This document shows, in pieces, positions 9,965 to 54,763 of a DNA stretch of 64,000 bases (position 1 is its first letter; each line of letters starts with the position of its first letter). Made by a program: the position numbers and the translations under genes. This DNA comes from Clostridia bacterium. GTDB taxonomy: Bacteria; Bacillota; Clostridia; Monoglobales; Monoglobaceae. The notes under the pieces were generated by a model, which was given only the letters and a program-made list of their open reading frames with translations, was not told the DNA's origin and did not search any database. The stretch covers positions 7,849 to 71,848 of the forward strand of contig JAZNVB010000026.1 of the NCBI GenBank assembly GCA_045592585.1. The letters run 5' to 3'.

Positions 9965-10240
9965 ATGGCAACTGTAAATATGAGTATACGTATGGATACT
10001 GAGTTAAAAAAACAAGCAGATGCAATGCTTTCGGATATGGGGCTTAATATGACAACGGCTATGAATATGTTTTTAAGACAAGTTGTTCGTCAGGGAAGAA
10101 TTCCGTTTGAAATTGCAACAGATATCCCTAATGCAGAAACTGTTGCTGCAATTAAGGAAATGGATGATATGTTAAGCGGAAAGGTGCCGAGTAAACGATA
10201 TTCAAGTACAAAAGAGCTTTTTGAGGATTTGGATGCATGA
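9965..10240 (+). CDS. Type II antitoxin, RelB/DinJ family
   Basis: N-terminal ribbon-helix-helix pattern VNMSIRMDTELKKQADAML...GLNMTTAMNMFLRQVV. Overlaps the toxin gene by 4 nt. Confidence 0.85.
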   Translation: MATVNMSIRMDTELKKQADAMLSDMGLNMTTAMNMFLRQVVRQGRIPFEIATDIPNAETVAAIKEMDDMLSGKVPSKRYSSTKELFEDLDA

Positions 10241-10512
10241 AGTATCAAATAGAGATATCAACCAGATTTAAAAAAGATTATAAGCTTGCTCAAAAGCGAG
10301 GTTATAATATGGGGTTATTAAAGGAAGTTATTGATATTTTGGCAAGCGGAGAACAGCTTCCGGAAAAATATCTTGATCATCAGCTTTCCGGAGATTATAG
10401 AGGTTCGAGAGAATGTCATATTGAACCTGACTGGCTTTTAATTTACCGAATTGAAAAAGATATACTTGTATTGGGCTTGACCCGAACAGGAACGCACAGT
10501 GATTTGTTTTAA
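10237..10512 (+). CDS. yafQ: Type II toxin, YafQ/RelE-family mRNA interferase
   Basis: FKKDYKLAQKRG..., LSGDYRGSRECHIEPDWLLIY and GTHSDLF are typical of YafQ. Confidence 0.85.
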   Translation: MKYQIEISTRFKKDYKLAQKRGYNMGLLKEVIDILASGEQLPEKYLDHQLSGDYRGSRECHIEPDWLLIYRIEKDILVLGLTRTGTHSDLF

Positions 10513-11993: not shown

Positions 11994-12171
11994 GGAGGAA
12001 TTTAATGTGAATGTTTTTTCACATTATTGCCTCCGGCAGATTTGATTGCCCATGCGAAATTTTTTTCGCTTTCGCTCAAAAACGCATATGGGCGTAAAAA
12101 TCTCTTATCATTCCTTGCCATACGGATAAGAGAAATTTAATTATATTTGTGCCGACGTATGGCGGCGGAAT
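11994..12171 (+). ncRNA. Structured SD-to-SD cassette, unit A1 (first unit of a tandem dimer)
   Basis: - Opening SD: GGAGG 11994-11998.
- P1: AATGTGAA/TTCACATT.
- Anti-SD: CCTCC.
- P2: GCCC 12048-51, ATGCG 12052-56 ... CGCAT 12083-87, bulge AT, GGGC 12090-93.
- P3: TCTCTTATC/GATAAGAGA.
- Loop CCATACG pairs with tail CGTATGG.
- Ends at the next GGAG. Confidence 0.75.
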
Positions 12172-12358
12172 GGAGATTAACGTGAAAGTTCCTTTCCCGT
12201 TAAGCCTCCGGCAGATTTGATTGCCCATGCGAATTTTTTTTCGCTTTCGCTCAAAAACGCATATGGGCGTAAAAATCTCTTATCATTCCTTGCCATACGG
12301 ATAAGAGAAATTTAAAATTATATTTGTGCCGACGTATGGCGGCGGAATGGAGATTTTT
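12172..12358 (+). ncRNA. Structured SD-to-SD cassette, unit A2. Ends at the SD and ATG of the cofE-like gene.
   Basis: - P1: 12179-12201.
- CCTCC: 12205-09.
- P2: 12223-12268.
- P3: 12276-12308.
- Pseudoknot: CCATACG 12293-99 with CGTATGG 12333-39.
- SD helix: GGAATGGAGATTTTT 12344-58 is complementary to AAAAATCTC 12271-79 and CATTCC 12284-89. Confidence 0.75.
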
Positions 12359-13549
12359 ATGGAAAGAAGAGTAGGTACAGTTTCAAGAGGTATCCGTTGC
12401 CCAATTATCCGTAAGGGCGATGATATAGCTACAATCGTAGTAAACAGTGTTACAGAGGCGGCTCAGATTGAAGGGTTTGAACTTCGCGACCGTGATGTTG
12501 TTGCAGTTACAGAATCTATTGTTGCACGTGCACAGGGCAACTATGCATCTGTTGACGCTATCGCAAAGGATGTATGCACAAAGCTTGGCGGCGGCACAAT
12601 CGGTGTTATTTTTCCAATTCTCAGCCGCAATCGTTTTGCTATCTGTTTAAGAGGTATTGCAAAGGGTGCAAAAAAGATAGTTCTTATGCTCAACTATCCC
12701 AGCGACGAGGTTGGCAATGCGTTGGTATCACTTGACCAGCTTGACAATGCGGGCGTTAATCCTTATTCTGATGTTCTTACCGAAGCAAAATATCGCGAGC
12801 TTTTTGGCGAGAATCCACATCCCTTCACAGGTGTTGATTATATAAAATACTATGGTGATTTGATTAAGTCCTGCGGCGCAGAGGTTGAAATAATTTTGGC
12901 AAATGACCCCAGAGTTATCCTTAAGTACACAGATTGCGTTCTTAACTGTGACATTCACAGCCGTGTTCGCACAAAGAGAATTTTAAAGGATGCAGGCGCA
13001 AAATGCGTTGTTGGTCTTGACGAAATTCTGTCAGAGTCTGTTGACGGCAGCGGATTTAACTCAAGATATGGTTTGCTTGGCTCAAACAAGTCAACTGAAG
13101 ACACAGTTAAGCTCTTCCCCAACGAATGTTTTGATTTGGTTGAAAATATTCAGGCACAGCTTTTAGAGAAGACAGGTAAGCATATCGAGGTTATGGTTTA
13201 CGGCGATGGCGCCTTCAAAGACCCCCAGGGCAAAATCTGGGAGCTTGCTGACCCGATAGTTTCACCTGCATACACAAAAGGGCTTGAGGGTACACCTAAC
13301 GAGCTTAAGCTCAAATATCTTGCAGATAATGATTTTGCAGAACTCAAGGGCGAGGAACTGAAAAAGGCAATTGAGGGTGCAATCAAGCAAAAGGATGGCG
13401 ACCTTGTTGGCAATATGGCATCTCAGGGCACAACCCCAAGACGCCTTACCGACCTTATCGGTTCACTTTGTGACCTTACAAGCGGCTCGGGCGACAAGGG
13501 CACACCGGTTGTTCTTGTTCAGGGCTACTTTGATAATTTGACAGACTAA
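12359..13549 (+). CDS. CofE-like protein (F420-0:gamma-glutamyl ligase family, PF01996-like), function unknown here
   Basis: Starts MERRVGTVSRGIRCPIIRKGDD...VVAVTESIVARAQG, which looks like the CofE family. ATG 12359 lies 6 nt after GGAG. The track start at 12326 runs into the RNA cassette. Confidence 0.6.
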   Translation: MERRVGTVSRGIRCPIIRKGDDIATIVVNSVTEAAQIEGFELRDRDVVAVTESIVARAQGNYASVDAIAKDVCTKLGGGTIGVIFPILSRNRFAICLRGIAKGAKKIVLMLNYPSDEVGNALVSLDQLDNAGVNPYSDVLTEAKYRELFGENPHPFTGVDYIKYYGDLIKSCGAEVEIILANDPRVILKYTDCVLNCDIHSRVRTKRILKDAGAKCVVGLDEILSESVDGSGFNSRYGLLGSNKSTEDTVKLFPNECFDLVENIQAQLLEKTGKHIEVMVYGDGAFKDPQGKIWELADPIVSPAYTKGLEGTPNELKLKYLADNDFAELKGEELKKAIEGAIKQKDGDLVGNMASQGTTPRRLTDLIGSLCDLTSGSGDKGTPVVLVQGYFDNLTD

Positions 13550-23402: not shown

Positions 23403-24119
23403 ATGACAAAAGAAAAATCACAGAATTCATATCTGTATGGATTAAACAAGGGGCTTCCCATTGCACTTGGTTATCTTTCGGTATCCTTTGGGTTTGGTAT
23501 TACCGCAGTGGGAATGGGTATTAACCCCATCGGCACAATACTTATATCATTAACAAATCTGACCTCGGCAGGTCAGGTGGCAGGTATTGGTATTATTGCC
23601 GCCTGCGGAGCTATTATCGAAATGATTCTGGCGCAGCTTGTTATAAATATGCGGTACAGCCTTATGGGATTGGCTCTTACCCAAAAGCTGGATGGCAGTT
23701 TTACCACCCCTCACCGTATGATTACCTCCTTTGCAATAACCGACGAGGTCTTTGCGGTTGCGGCGGCAGAAAGGGGTCTTATTGGCAGAAGGTTTATGTA
23801 TGGTCTGATAACTCTGCCACCTGTTGGCTGGACAATGGGTACGACTTTGGGTGTGTATGCAGGGCAGATTTTGCCGCCATCGGTGTGCGCGGCGCTGGGA
23901 CTTGCCATTTACAGTATGTTTATTGCCATAATTATTCCACCTGCAAAGGCTGATAAGGGAGTTTTGTGTGCGGTGCTTATTGCCTCGGCAATGAGTTGTG
24001 CATTTTATTATATCCCGATATTTGACGGACTTTCGCAAGGCTTTTCAATTATAATATGCGCCGTTGTTGCATCGGGAATAATGGCATATATCGCACCAAA
24101 GTCAGGGGAGGAGGAGTAA
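23403..24119 (+). CDS. azlC: AzlC-family branched-chain amino acid permease component
   Basis: Typical AzlC N-terminus (GLPIALGYLSVSFGFGI) and size. Followed by azlD. Confidence 0.85.
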   Translation: MTKEKSQNSYLYGLNKGLPIALGYLSVSFGFGITAVGMGINPIGTILISLTNLTSAGQVAGIGIIAACGAIIEMILAQLVINMRYSLMGLALTQKLDGSFTTPHRMITSFAITDEVFAVAAAERGLIGRRFMYGLITLPPVGWTMGTTLGVYAGQILPPSVCAALGLAIYSMFIAIIIPPAKADKGVLCAVLIASAMSCAFYYIPIFDGLSQGFSIIICAVVASGIMAYIAPKSGEEE

Positions 24120-24278
24120 CGTGATAAACACGTTATCAATAATTAAATGCCCGTGCGATATTTTCGCCGGGGCGAAACGCACATGGGCAAATATCTATTA
24201 TACGCCTTATCTGCCCACGATATGGTGTAATATGTTTTCACGTTATGATTTGTGGGCTGAAAGGCTATGGATATTTAT
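24113..24278 (+). ncRNA. Structured SD-to-SD cassette, unit D (monomer between azlC and azlD)
   Basis: - Opening SD: GGAG 24113-16 overlaps the last azlC codons.
- P1: AACGTG 24118-23 with CACGTT 24129-34.
- P2: GCCC 24149-52, GTGCG ... CGCAC, bulge AT, GGGC 24185-88.
- P3: CCTTATC 24205-11 with GATATGG 24219-25.
- Pseudoknot: GCCCAC 24213-18 with GTGGGC 24252-57.
- SD helix: AAATATC 24189-95 with GATATTT 24270-76. Confidence 0.65.
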
Positions 24279-30238: not shown

Positions 30239-30466
30239 ATGAAAGAGCTTTTGGAATTTATTGCAAAATCAATGGTTTCAGAGCCTGATGCAGTTTCGAT
30301 TGAAGAAAATGTTCAGGAAAACTCGGTTGTTTTGACCTTGCACGTTGCCGAAGGCGATATGGGTAAGGTTATCGGCAAGCAGGGAAGAATAGCAAAGGCT
30401 ATCCGCACTGTTGTTAAGGCGGCTGCAAGCCACGAAAACAAAAAAGTTACGGTTGATATTGTGTAA
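30239..30466 (+). CDS. KH-domain RNA-binding protein (YlqC family)
   Basis: GKVIGKQGRIAKAIRTV motif. Position between rpsP and rimM. Confidence 0.9.
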   Translation: MKELLEFIAKSMVSEPDAVSIEENVQENSVVLTLHVAEGDMGKVIGKQGRIAKAIRTVVKAAASHENKKVTVDIV

Positions 30467-30481
30467 CATTAAAGGTAAGAT

Positions 30482-30520
30482 AGACTGTATCGCAACCGGT
30501 ACAGTCTTTACTTGCTTTTA
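30482..30520 (+). terminator. Weak terminator/attenuator hairpin after the KH gene
   Basis: AGACTGTA-10 nt-TACAGTCT followed by TTTACTTGCTTTTA. Confidence 0.4.
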
Positions 30521-30536
30521 TAGATAGGTTTTAATT

Positions 30537-30714
30537 GAGGAATTTAACGTGAAAGTTCCTTTCACGTTAAGCCTCCGGCGGATTTGATTGCCCGTGTGAG
30601 ATTTTCCTCGCGTTTGCTCGGAAACACACATGGGCGTAAAAATCTCTTATCATTCCTTGCCATGCGGATAAGAGATATTTAATTCCTATTTGTGCCGACG
30701 TATGGCGGCGGAAT
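30537..30714 (+). ncRNA. Structured SD-to-SD cassette, unit B1
   Basis: - Opening SD: GAGGA 30537-41.
- P1: perfect 10 bp, AACGTGAAAG 30546-55 with CTTTCACGTT 30559-68.
- Anti-SD: CCTCC.
- P2: GCCC 30590-93, GTGTG ... CACAC, bulge AT, GGGC 30632-35.
- P3: 30643-30675.
- Loop CCATGCG pairs with tail CGTATGG (one G-U pair). Confidence 0.75.
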
Positions 30715-30902
30715 GGAGATTAACGTGAAAGTTCCTTTCCCGTTAAGCCTCCGGCGGATTTGATTGCCCGTGTGAGATTTTCCTCGCGTTTGCTCGGAAA
30801 CACACATAGGCGTAAAAATCTCTTATCATTCCTTGCCATACGGATAAGAGATATTTAAGTCCTATTTGTGCCGACGTATGGCGGCGGAATGGAGATTTTT
30901 AT
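30715..30902 (+). ncRNA. Structured SD-to-SD cassette, unit B2. Ends at the rimM SD and ATG.
   Basis: Same architecture as A2, and near-identical to it outside P2. A G-to-A change at 30808 weakens P2a (AGGC instead of GGGC). GGAG 30891-94 lies 8 nt before ATG 30903. Confidence 0.75.
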
Positions 30903-31400
30903 ATGAAAAATAATCTTGAAATTGGACAAATAGTGAATACCCACGGTCTTCGGGGCGACCTTAAGGTTATGCCATGGTGCGACGATCCCGAAATTTTTGA
31001 CGAGCTGGCGTATGTTATTATAGATGGCGAAGAATATGATATCGAAAAATCCCGGATGCAAAAGAATATGGTTCTTCTGAAACTTGCAGGGATAGACCAT
31101 ATCAATGAAGCCGAGAAATACCGCAACAAGGTGCTTACCATTCCCCGTGAGGAATTGGGTGAACTTCCTGAGGGCACCTATTACATCTGCGACCTTCTGG
31201 GTTGCGGTGTAACAACAGATCAGGGCAGAGAATTGGGCAAAATTTGTGATATAATCAAGACGGGCAGCAATGATGTTTATGTGGTTGAGGATGATGCCGG
31301 CAATCAGGTGCTAATCCCTGTAATTGATGAAGTTGTTTTGTCTGTTGACATTGATGAAAAGAAAATTGTTATTAAGCCCTTAAAAGGATTGATTGACTGA
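30903..31400 (+). CDS. rimM: Ribosome maturation factor RimM
   Basis: IGQIVNTHGLRGDLKV and a PRC-barrel C-terminus. Position before trmD. Confidence 0.92.
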   Translation: MKNNLEIGQIVNTHGLRGDLKVMPWCDDPEIFDELAYVIIDGEEYDIEKSRMQKNMVLLKLAGIDHINEAEKYRNKVLTIPREELGELPEGTYYICDLLGCGVTTDQGRELGKICDIIKTGSNDVYVVEDDAGNQVLIPVIDEVVLSVDIDEKKIVIKPLKGLID

Positions 31401-37939: not shown

Positions 37940-38120
37940 GGAGATATAACGTGAAAAATCACGTTAATCACTATATTTAAATTGCACCGTCGAAATTTTC
38001 GCACAAAGTGCGAAACGACGATGTGCGTAATCTCCATTTCACGTCTTATCTCGCCCACGGATAAGAGACAGGGGATTTAAAATATAATCATTTGTGGGCG
38101 GAAAGACTATGGAGATTAAT
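37940..38120 (+). ncRNA. Structured SD-to-SD cassette, unit C (monomer upstream of rsfS)
   Basis: - Opening SD: GGAGAT 37940-45.
- P1: AACGTGA 37948-54 with TCACGTT 37959-65.
- P2: GCAC 37984-87, CGTCG 37988-92, TTTCGCAC/GTGCGAAA, CGACG 38016-20, bulge AT, GTGC 38023-26.
- P3: TCTTATC 38044-50 with GATAAGA 38060-66.
- Pseudoknot: CGCCCAC 38052-58 with GTGGGCG 38094-100.
- SD helix: TAATCTCCAT 38028-37 with ATGGAGATTA 38109-18. Confidence 0.75.
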
Positions 38121-38483
38121 ATGAGTTGTGAAAATAATTATGTAAATACGGCGGTTAAAGCAATAGACAGCAAAAAAGGCAAGGAGATAACTGTTCTCAG
38201 CCTTAGCGAGCTTACCACATTGACAAGTTATTTTGTTATTGCAACCGGCGGCTCAAACAAAAATGTTCAGGCAATCTGTGACGAGGTTGAGGAAAAGATG
38301 CGTGATGCCGGGGCAAAGCTCTGGAACAAAGAGGGCTATGACAGCGGCGAATGGATACTGCTTAACTATGATGATGTTATGGTGCATATCTTCCAAAGTG
38401 AAACCCGCGAATTTTACAAGCTTGAACACATCTGGAAGGATGCGCCCTCAGTGGATGTTGATGATTTAATTCAGGAAGACTAA
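38121..38483 (+). CDS. rsfS: Ribosome silencing factor RsfS
   Basis: The pattern LSLSELTTLTSYFVIATGGSNKNVQAI...YDDVMVHIF is typical of RsfS. ATG 38121 lies 6 nt after GGAG. The track start at 38094 lies inside the cassette. Confidence 0.9.
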   Translation: MSCENNYVNTAVKAIDSKKGKEITVLSLSELTTLTSYFVIATGGSNKNVQAICDEVEEKMRDAGAKLWNKEGYDSGEWILLNYDDVMVHIFQSETREFYKLEHIWKDAPSVDVDDLIQED

Positions 38484-53886: not shown

Positions 53887-53965
53887 GTTGTTTTGGAGTA
53901 AAATAAAGTTGAATTATTTACATTTTTTTTCTTTTATGATAATATTGAAAAATGGAGGAGATTTT

Positions 53966-54763
53966 ATGCTTATAGATATTCACACACACGTATTCCCTGA
54001 AAAAATTGCCCAAAGGGCGATTGAAACTTTGAGTCATACATCAGGTGGACTTATACCGCAGCATAAGGGGACTCTTGCAAGCCTTAAAGAAGAAATGGCA
54101 AAAGACGGAGTAGACATTTCGGTGGTTTTGGGGATTGCCACAAACCCTCATCAGCAGACAAATGTTAATAACTTTGCGGCCGAGATAAACAAGGACGAAA
54201 AAATTGTTGCCTTCGGGTCGGTGCATCCCGATGCCCCCGATGCGCTGGATGAGCTTGAACGTATTAAGGCTCTGGGACTTAAAGGTGTTAAACTTCACCC
54301 TGAGTATCAGAATTTTTTTGTTGATGACGAGAGGATGAAGCCTATATACGAAAAAATCTCACGACTTGGACTTGTAACACTTTTCCATGCAGGGCATGAT
54401 TACGGCTACGGCGAGCCATTTCACTGTATGCCGCAAAATTTAGAACGTGCGCTAAAATGGTTTTCGGCACCTGTTATTGCGGCTCATTGGGGCGGCGCAG
54501 GTTGCAAGGATTTAGTAATAAAACACTTAGCAGGCAAGGATGTGTGGTTTGATTTGTCCTTTGGATATGGTAATATGCCAAAGAGCTTTGCTCAGGAAAT
54601 TGTGGACAAGCACACCCCCGACAGACTGCTGTTTGGCTCGGATATGCCCTGGCACAGACCATCATGGGAGGTAAGGCTGATTGAGTCCTTAGACCTTTCG
54701 TCACAGGATAAGGAAAAGATATATTACAAAAATGCAGTCCGGCTTTTGGGTTTGGATATATAA
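53966..54763 (+). CDS. Amidohydrolase-family (TIM-barrel metal hydrolase) protein
   Basis: MLIDIHTHVFP start, HPEYQ, AHWGG. ATG 53966 follows GGAGG. Confidence 0.7.
   Translation: MLIDIHTHVFPEKIAQRAIETLSHTSGGLIPQHKGTLASLKEEMAKDGVDISVVLGIATNPHQQTNVNNFAAEINKDEKIVAFGSVHPDAPDALDELERIKALGLKGVKLHPEYQNFFVDDERMKPIYEKISRLGLVTLFHAGHDYGYGEPFHCMPQNLERALKWFSAPVIAAHWGGAGCKDLVIKHLAGKDVWFDLSFGYGNMPKSFAQEIVDKHTPDRLLFGSDMPWHRPSWEVRLIESLDLSSQDKEKIYYKNAVRLLGLDI

Follow-up and report, generated by a model that had tools for sequence, protein, structure and literature searches.

A tandem 176-base repeat at the rimM start codon belongs to an interspersed family of candidate ribosome-binding-site cassettes in gut Clostridia

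Results

A tandem repeat supplies the rimM ribosome-binding site

The spacer between khpA and rimM in a 64,000-nucleotide (nt) stretch of a Clostridia bacterium genome (contig JAZNVB010000026.1, positions 7,849 to 71,848; hereafter the window) contains two head-to-tail copies of an element that is oriented with its gene, has the start codon directly after it, and supplies through its 3' end a Shine-Dalgarno (SD) sequence, GGAG, and a 6-nt spacer. We favor, with a probability of about 0.62, a model in which the element is a proliferating RNA cassette of ~176 nt that resides at ribosome-binding sites (RBSs), replaces the RBS of the host gene, and gates translation. Covariation among copies of the element shows that the predicted hairpins P1 and P2, a putative pseudoknot, and a helix that would sequester the SD are under selection. 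We rate the element as an interspersed, apparently transcribed bacterial repeat with a putative cis-regulatory effect, and its 176-base unit appears to be undescribed.

Repeat finding and gene calls agree with the original prediction, which had placed a tandem dimer between the KH-protein gene khpA (30239–30466) and rimM (ATG at 30903); the gene order at this locus is ffh-rpsP-khpA-rimM-trmD. Tandem Repeats Finder delimits the dimer to 30544–30897 (period 176, 2.0 copies, 97% matches), and its units B1 (30546–30721, a full-length nhmmer match) and B2 (30722–30897) share 97.7% identity, with 4 differing positions. A 30-nt probe with at most 3 mismatches matches the window only at 12177, 30544, and 30720 and matched 0 of 100 shuffles. 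The identity of RimM was checked against Pfam/NCBIfam.

Both units have the same parts, which, like the RBSs and other copies mapped in the window, lie on the + strand. B1 begins with hairpin P1 (30544–30570), followed by an anti-SD, CCTCC (30572–30576), and the 46-nt hairpin P2 (30590–30635). Next come the sequestering strand AAAAATCTCT (30638–30647), for which covariation is counted below, and P3 (30642–30651 paired with 30667–30676), which encloses loop L3 (30652–30666). The tail GTATGGC..GGAAT (30700–30714) leads into the SD GGAG (30715–30718). The corresponding parts of B2 are P1 (30720–30746), an anti-SD (30748–30752) that pairs with the SD of B1, P2 (30766–30811), the sequestering strand (30814–30823), P3 (30818–30827 with 30843–30852), L3 (30828–30842), the tail (30876–30890), and the SD GGAG (30891–30894). 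This last SD, the spacer ATTTTTAT, and the ATG form the present RBS of rimM (30891–30905). The original rimM SD (GAGGA, 30537–30541) now lies 360 nt from the ATG; it pairs with the anti-SD of B1 in a helix, P0, that is present in the minimum-free-energy fold.

A family of elements at start codons

Species-representative genome contigs were scanned with a 20-mer from the 3' end of the element, which matched at least 115 stretches in dozens of genomes. Carriers among the matches listed are all uncultured gut Clostridia, namely Ructibacterium, Congzhengia, Candidatus Aphodoplasma, and unnamed lineages from ruminants and humans. A 5'-anchored pattern matched 27 metagenome contigs, and an nhmmer profile found 84 full-length copies together with many partial ones. 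Genomes contain several copies, and identity between copies at different genes of one genome reaches 97–98%.

The position of the element relative to genes is nearly constant. A start codon with an open reading frame (ORF) of at least 40 amino acids directly follows 146 of 167 element 3' ends, and in 117 of these 146 the start codon lies exactly 6 nt after GGAG. The remaining 3' ends are followed by another unit (15), a contig end (3), or nothing recognisable (3). In solo copies, positions −8 to −5 of the 5' flank form a G-rich block resembling an SD, and position −1 is a T in 64 of 66. Judged by eye from 115 N-terminal sequences, the downstream genes look mutually unrelated; the names assigned in this way include fmt, engB, cysK, mtnN, uvrB, lexA, mscL, ispG, and thiC as well as transporters and lipoproteins, and only RimM and an F420_ligase-family protein were checked against Pfam/NCBIfam. 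As is general for interspersed repeats, many copies occur at unrelated loci with presence/absence polymorphism.

Known families did not account for the element. Rfam 15 gave no match at the gathering score in the 64-kb window and none at an E-value of up to 10 for 30440–30930; in 14 loci with related families it returned tRNAs only. Phage, plasmid, and IMG/VR collections contained no match to the element, and its conserved sequence strings did not occur in the literature searched.

The rimM insertion is recent and the dimer probably arose locally

Relatives of the window were picked by an identical KhpA or RimM protein (L001, L002, and so on label the contigs or stretches compared). Among those with identical KhpA, the khpA-rimM spacer is 72–82 nt without a unit in L002–L006 and L009 and 261 nt with one unit in L001, L007, L008, and L010; the window, with two units, has a spacer of 436 nt. 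L011 encodes an identical RimM protein, yet its site is empty. In 7 relatives the empty site has the sequence TTGAGGAATTTTATATG, and the filled site reads TTGAGGAATTT, then AACGTG...GGAATGGAGATTTTT, then ATATG; comparison of the two places the element within the spacer between SD and ATG. A second filled/empty pair is provided by the window gene at 53966, whose RBS (ATGGAGGAGATTTTATG, 53950–53968) is unoccupied and whose 94%-identical ortholog in genome JAZNBG (L050:3688–4036) carries a dimer at this site; the rimM site of that genome is empty (L003). The rimM insertion is recent, near-identical strains having 0, 1, or 2 units, and the dimer is not an ancestral leader of the operon. The spacer comparison bears out the earlier proposal of an insertion into the operon. 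The hairpin and T-rich stretch (30482–30520) that had been described as preceding the dimer do exist, but they are native spacer, located outside the element and found also in the element-free L002–L006 and L011; a consensus scan for terminators made no call there.

The monomers at the rimM site of L001, L007, and L008 are identical to B1 at 176 of 176 positions. B1 and the L001 monomer are 100% identical, whereas rimM and trmD are 88% and the spacer 89% identical. The khpA and rimM flanks of the window agree with L011, a strain whose site is empty, and agreement with L001 is confined to the proximal spacer. The identity of B1 to the L001 monomer fits a recent import by recombination; independent insertion was considered for this identity on a ~12% diverged background and set aside, as inter-strain recombination explains it equally well.

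Tandem arrangements make up ~15% of loci, and the window contains a second one, formed by A1 (12004–12178) and A2 (12179–12355). Identity is much higher within a locus (97.7% for B1 and B2, 93.8% for A1 and A2) than between loci (87–89%). Together with the monomer at the same rimM site, this indicates that dimers arose locally, without transposition of a dimer, and it lends no support to the earlier inference that the dimer rather than the monomer was copied between loci. That inference had drawn on a C mismatch in P1 common to A2 and B2. The mismatch does exist, but most copies in the family share this state (a non-standard P1 pair, mostly U·C, occurs in 49 of 79 copies), and it provides no argument for copying of dimers. 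The accompanying statement that the units differ at only a handful of positions outside P2 is true for A2 and B2, which have 19 differing positions, about 13 of them in P2, but not for A1 and B1, which differ throughout P1. The dimer would most likely have resulted from local duplication or from unequal recombination between the direct, RBS-like repeats on the two sides of a unit. At 2 of the 4 sites that distinguish B2 from B1, B2 has the base of the family consensus; the events may have been duplication followed by divergence, conversion, or, in the lineage of L001, the loss of a unit.

Covariation supports a pseudoknotted fold around the SD

The RNAalifold consensus of 79 distinct copies was poor, and P1, P2, P3, and the pseudoknot between loop and tail were therefore counted in this alignment as explicit structures. 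Cells in these structures are paired in 96.5% of cases, compared with 35–54% when the partners are slid, and 13 pairs are changed on both sides (4.6 ± 1.4 in shuffles). In P2, ATGCG/CGCAT of the A units becomes GTGTG/CACAC in the B units and TTTTT/AAAAA becomes TTTCC/GGAAA. The compensatory nature of these changes, noted originally, holds for the A and B units, and the same columns covary across the 79 members: pair 67–104 is GC in 67 and AU in 8, pair 70–101 is CG in 75 and UA in 3, and pairs 79–96 and 80–95 have 6–7 double changes each. The suggestion that P2 is a specificity module found no support. P2 is simply the most variable arm; it contains an insertion in L082, is deleted in L116, and has the consensus sequence in L059, the rimM copy of another species. 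The G-to-A change at 30808 in B2 breaks a P2a pair as noted, leaving a C·A mismatch; this single mismatch is the basis for the proposal that B2 may be decaying.

The genome set was collected by the 3'-end probe and is biased at that end, and the pseudoknot and SD-sequestering helix were retested on 5'-anchored copies. In the pseudoknot, GCCAUAC of L3 pairs with GUAUGGC of the tail; another subfamily has GCCCUGC with GCAGGGC, and single copies have GCCACAC/GUGUGGC and GCCUUGC/GCAAGGC. The pseudoknot is 99% paired in the 5'-anchored set, with 4 of 7 pairs compensated. In the SD-sequestering helix, an A-rich/CUCU strand (AAAAAUCUC opposite GGAGAUUUUU) pairs with the SD and its spacer. Variants replace AAAAAUCUCU and GGAGAUUUUU by AAUAAUCUC and GGAGAUUAUU or by AUUAAUCUC and GGAGAUUAAU. 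This helix is 95% paired, with three pairs compensated and AA/UU swapped to UU/AA; the covariation implies that the TTT before the ATG belongs to the element. Translational control through such a helix had been an idea only, and covariation now argues for it. Copies of a sister family adopt the same architecture with another sequence, for example GCCUU..CUGCC with GGCAG..AAGGC.

UCUCU is common to the sequestering helix and the 5' strand of P3, which makes the two mutually exclusive in the main family. In nested folds, in which the pseudoknot is unscored, the state with the SD sequestered has −33 kcal/mol and the state with P3 forced −26.8 kcal/mol. Such folds do not favor an RNA thermometer, the sequestered state being ~5–6 kcal/mol more stable throughout 25–50 °C. 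We also considered GAGAUUUU of P2 (30598–30605) as an anti-sequestrator of AAAAUCUC and rejected it, since by eye in the alignment the AAUAAUCUC subfamily has no matching change in P2. At the 5' end, P0 is formed by a CCUCC 1–4 nt beyond P1 and its partner, which is either the native SD that the insertion displaced or the SD of the unit before. Elements fold 1.06 kcal/mol better with their own flank than with flanks swapped in from other copies, and 0 of 10,000 permutations matched this value (orthologous copies included).

A model for RBS replacement

Three observations argue for selection of the structure at the level of mRNA, namely the pseudoknot, the covarying helix between sequestering strand and SD/spacer, and the strictly shared orientation of element and gene. 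We propose a model in which the element acts in the mRNA. The CCUCC that follows P1 would silence the displaced native SD, or in a dimer the SD of the preceding unit, through P0, and the gene would be translated from the element's own SD. Translation would then depend on whether this SD is sequestered, as in the nested minimum-free-energy state, or released by P3 and the pseudoknot. Two kinds of shortened copy fit the cassette model: seven copies are truncated precisely to the start of the sequestering strand (model positions 88–93), and at a single gene, by eye cysK, deletion relics in L022, L116, and L045 keep only the hairpin-plus-SD module.

Several observations weigh against this model. 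The argument for function at the RNA level is drawn from covariation. P3 is 99% paired but near-invariant and shows almost no covariation; its departures are G·U in only 12 cases versus C·A in 7, short of proving strand specificity. Compensations in the pseudoknot and SD helix mostly separate a few subfamilies, which makes the independent events few (~4 for the pseudoknot). Sister copies lack CCUCC, so that P0 is not universal, and in the copy at 37948 the sequestering strand and P3 do not overlap, which leaves a sequestered SD but no on/off switch. Finally, neither a mobilising enzyme nor a terminal inverted repeat nor a target duplication was found in the neighbourhoods, the one-unit scan, and the filled/empty pairs.

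The element would work like a translational expression platform and behaves in populations like a miniature interspersed repeat. It does not show the defining properties of riboswitches, MITEs (miniature transposable elements with inverted repeats), IS200/IS605 derivatives, introns, or leader-peptide attenuators. It is tempting to speculate that it represents a new class, a pseudoknotted mobile riboregulator that homes to RBSs, puts the resident SD out of action, and offers a gated one in its place; we put this forward tentatively and think it somewhat more apt to prove wrong than right. Homing could be guided by pairing of the anti-SD and linker with the SD and spacer of the target, or by homology between the 3' RBS of the element and the target.

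If this speculation is true, four loci in 64 kb would mean that a few percent of genes are under one post-transcriptional switch in these gut Clostridia. If the RNA reading holds, the element would be a natural, portable module for RBS replacement and would illustrate how a selfish repeat can enter the few bases in which a gene is most vulnerable and yet not destroy the gene. One repeat family could in that case build a genome-wide translational regulon in abundant uncultured gut bacteria, and its compact, self-contained design (anti-SD silencer plus gated SD) could serve synthetic biology. The repeat is also a marker of strain-level variation in metagenomes, and it calls for caution, as a repeat insertion, of a kind on which assemblers break, can lie behind a change of spacer length in a "conserved" operon (rpsP-khpA-rimM-trmD, for example).

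Alternative explanations and known systems

Selfish DNA, comparable to MITEs, PATEs, or REPINs, is the leading competitor of the cassette model, although we consider it unlikely. The hairpins would then be recognised as single-stranded DNA by a transposase or recombinase supplied in trans, the SD would do no more than make insertion tolerable, and the fold of the RNA would play no part in regulation. Insertion polymorphism, high copy number, tandem arrays, and the conserved P1 mismatch speak for this explanation, as do the relics reduced to the SD module. The 5' hairpin and 3' GCCGCC-GTAT-GGCGGC module are moreover common to several interior families, like the ends of transposons. Covariation of the pseudoknot and of the SD/spacer helix speaks against it, as does the exact start of the seven truncated copies at the sequestering strand. 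In addition, inverted terminal repeats are absent, the end hairpins are unlike each other, and no transposase was seen nearby.

PATEs derived from IS200/IS605 and REP/REPIN sequences resemble the element in the absence of inverted terminal repeats, hairpins at or close to both ends, a conserved hairpin irregularity, possible pairing between flank and element, and tandem or clustered copies. Unlike them, the element has end hairpins (P1 and GCCGCC-GTAT-GGCGGC) that are unrelated in sequence, no fixed 4–5 nt target but only a T at −1, no TnpA or RAYT seen near 3'-only copies, and a pseudoknot and SD helix that make sense only in mRNA. P1, an AACG...CGTT hairpin with a conserved mismatch and variable tip, is reminiscent of integron attC sites, which are imperfect AAC...GTT hairpins with extrahelical bases, arrayed next to intI/attI; however, copies of the element are dispersed at RBSs and the crossover point lies outside the hairpin. 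The transcribed miniature repeats of bacteria (Correia/NEMIS of Neisseria, ERIC, pneumococcal BOX/RUP, and Bacillus cereus bcr1; cf. PMC3049150, PMC3116915) are likewise small, non-coding, insertion-polymorphic, and present in many copies per genome; they are co-transcribed with neighbours, have stable predicted folds, and can alter expression. They are known for inverted terminal repeats or simple palindromes, defined target duplications (TA, TTTAT), and intergenic positions anywhere in either orientation, whereas the element lacks terminal inverted repeats, is co-oriented with genes, and adjoins start codons. The SD and anti-SD that the element brings and its covarying pseudoknotted fold also set it apart.

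A second alternative, which we consider improbable, is an upstream-translation or coupling device in which the native SD and the conserved GUG AAA at the 5' end of the element initiate a mini-ORF whose translation would unfold the element and expose the downstream SD. In 61 of 79 copies, a GTG follows the native SD at a distance of ~6–7 nt, GTGAAA is kept across interior families, and the upstream stop TAA overlaps the 5' end of the element in intercistronic copies; at 24118, a 53-codon frame spans the whole copy to the start codon. However, 17 of the 79 copies have GCG, GAG, or GGG instead of GTG, the frame stops at column 56, 150, or 165 or not at all as the linker length shifts it, and changes in the loop include in-frame stops. 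Both start signals, the first SD and the GUG, are moreover hidden within P0 and P1. A conserved leader peptide or erm/cat-type attenuator, in which translation of a leader ORF remodels the pairing of SD2, was rejected on similar grounds: 62 of 79 copies have a start codon, but stop and frame are not conserved. Mycobacterial MIRU share with the element tandem units within operons that are oriented with transcription, touch stop and start codons, and vary in copy number among strains. MIRU, 46–100 bp in length, are thought to act through small coupled ORFs, and the mini-ORF of the element is not conserved. To our knowledge, MIRU have not been described as having a complex, conserved RNA fold or a helix that sequesters the SD.

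We strongly disfavor a tandem metabolite-sensing riboswitch that controls rimM. The element does have a complex conserved fold with a pseudoknot, SD sequestration, and a tandem arrangement. As expected of an expression platform, its predicted SD-sequestering helix shares bases with P3 and shows compensatory changes. Translational riboswitch platforms and RNA thermometers likewise sequester the SD by an upstream strand that alternatively forms a hairpin, with a pseudoknot adjacent to the SD. A difference lies in the absence of a coherent regulon, the downstream genes looking functionally unrelated by eye across the 115 N-termini. A conserved ligand pocket also seems to be lacking, as conservation between the main family and the sister family does not extend to junctions J1/2 and J2/3. 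The element is moreover mobile and variable in copy number, present or absent from strain to strain, and belongs to no Rfam family, with no match even at an E-value of 10.

Equally hard to credit is a self-cleaving or self-splicing, intron-like ribozyme whose excision would give the mRNA its native RBS back. In its favor, the 5' flank ends in U and pairs with CCUCC, which resembles an internal guide, and Clostridioides difficile contains a group I ribozyme between an SD and a start codon. Against it, a unit of 176 nt lies below the size of group I or II introns, which have a conserved catalytic core, exceed ~200 nt, and restore the continuity of exons. None of the ribozyme and intron models of Rfam (Intron_gpI and Intron_gpII included) matched, and an own SD fixed 6 nt from the ATG with covariation would be needless if spliced out.

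Mode of spread

The one-unit scan found internal hairpins only and no terminal inverted repeats, and the 5' (AACGTGAAAG) and 3' (GGAATGGAGATT) ends of the element are non-complementary. The rimM insertion adds 178 nt, compared with a tandem period of 176, and ends in a T-run whose T counts are inconsistent between the two filled/empty pairs. Models with a duplicated target of TA, TT, or TTTA, and a model with insertion directly 5' of the ATG, are each at odds with one or both of these pairs. ORFs upstream of 3'-only copies look ordinary by eye, with no transposase-like ORF seen among them. Candidate autonomous copies, in which the ends would flank an ORF, were rejected, as the split matches reflect small internal insertions or deletions (L125, L082, L116). 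Both known native targets, GAGGAATTTTATATG and GGAGGAGATTTTATG, resemble the 3' end of the element, GGAGATTTTTATG. This resemblance suggests that spread may occur by recombination guided by homology, by template switching, or by a recombinase whose core resembles GGAGATT.

Other copies in the window and related families

In total, the window contains four loci with six units. Dimer A (12004–12355, also placed at 11997–12347) lies directly before a gene of the F420_ligase family (ATG at 12359). Promoter-like motifs occur in A2 (TTGCCA-17-TAAAAT, 12290–12318) and A1 (TTGCCA-18-AATTAT, 12115–12144), where the P3 loop contains the −35 and the A/T-rich linker the −10; the element might in addition act as a promoter for the gene that follows. 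A contig with an identical F420_ligase-family gene ends within a unit (L127:1–112), an example of how these repeats interrupt assemblies from short reads. Upstream of dimer A, two adjacent ORFs of 91 amino acids (9965–10512) resemble by eye a RelB/DinJ antitoxin and a YafQ/RelE-type toxin.

The two remaining loci carry sister-family copies. One (24118–24278) is located between the ORF at 23403–24119 and the next ORF, which were read by eye, without a domain search, as azlC and azlD. The upstream stop TAA overlaps the 5' end of this copy, being composed of a flanking T and the first two bases of the element. P1, P2, the pseudoknot, and the predicted SD-sequestering architecture are as in the main family, the sequence is different, and the CCUCC anti-SD is lacking. 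The other copy (37948–38119) lies directly before an ORF with its ATG at 38121 (rsfS by eye, without a domain search); its pairings are UAAUCUCCAU with AUGGAGAUUA and CGCCCAC with GUGGGCG.

Elements with other interiors occupy comparable positions. At least three other interior families share a 5' SD-N(5-8)-CGTGAAAG hairpin and a 3' TTTGTGCCGCCGTATGGCGGCGGAATGGAG module directly before start codons, the common 3' module reading GCCGCC-GTAT-GGCGGC-GGAATGGAG. They are represented by L104, L097, L072, L024, L061, and L065; by L108, L029, and L103; and by L115, L056, and L100. Some are tandem, one contains an internal terminator-like hairpin, and none matched Rfam. In L137 (11222–11896) and L131 (11310–12138), a short gene is flanked by two elements; the left flank of the second element has no SD (ATTATATTGTTATT, then AACG), and the junction is again TAA. 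Within the operon of rimM, a 160-nt sister element lies between rimM and trmD in L002 (3806–3968) and also in L005 and L009; in the window, the two genes overlap as TGATG. The rpsP-khpA spacer varies from 46 to 246 nt among relatives, and the 246-nt version (L001:2755–3000) lies outside this family.

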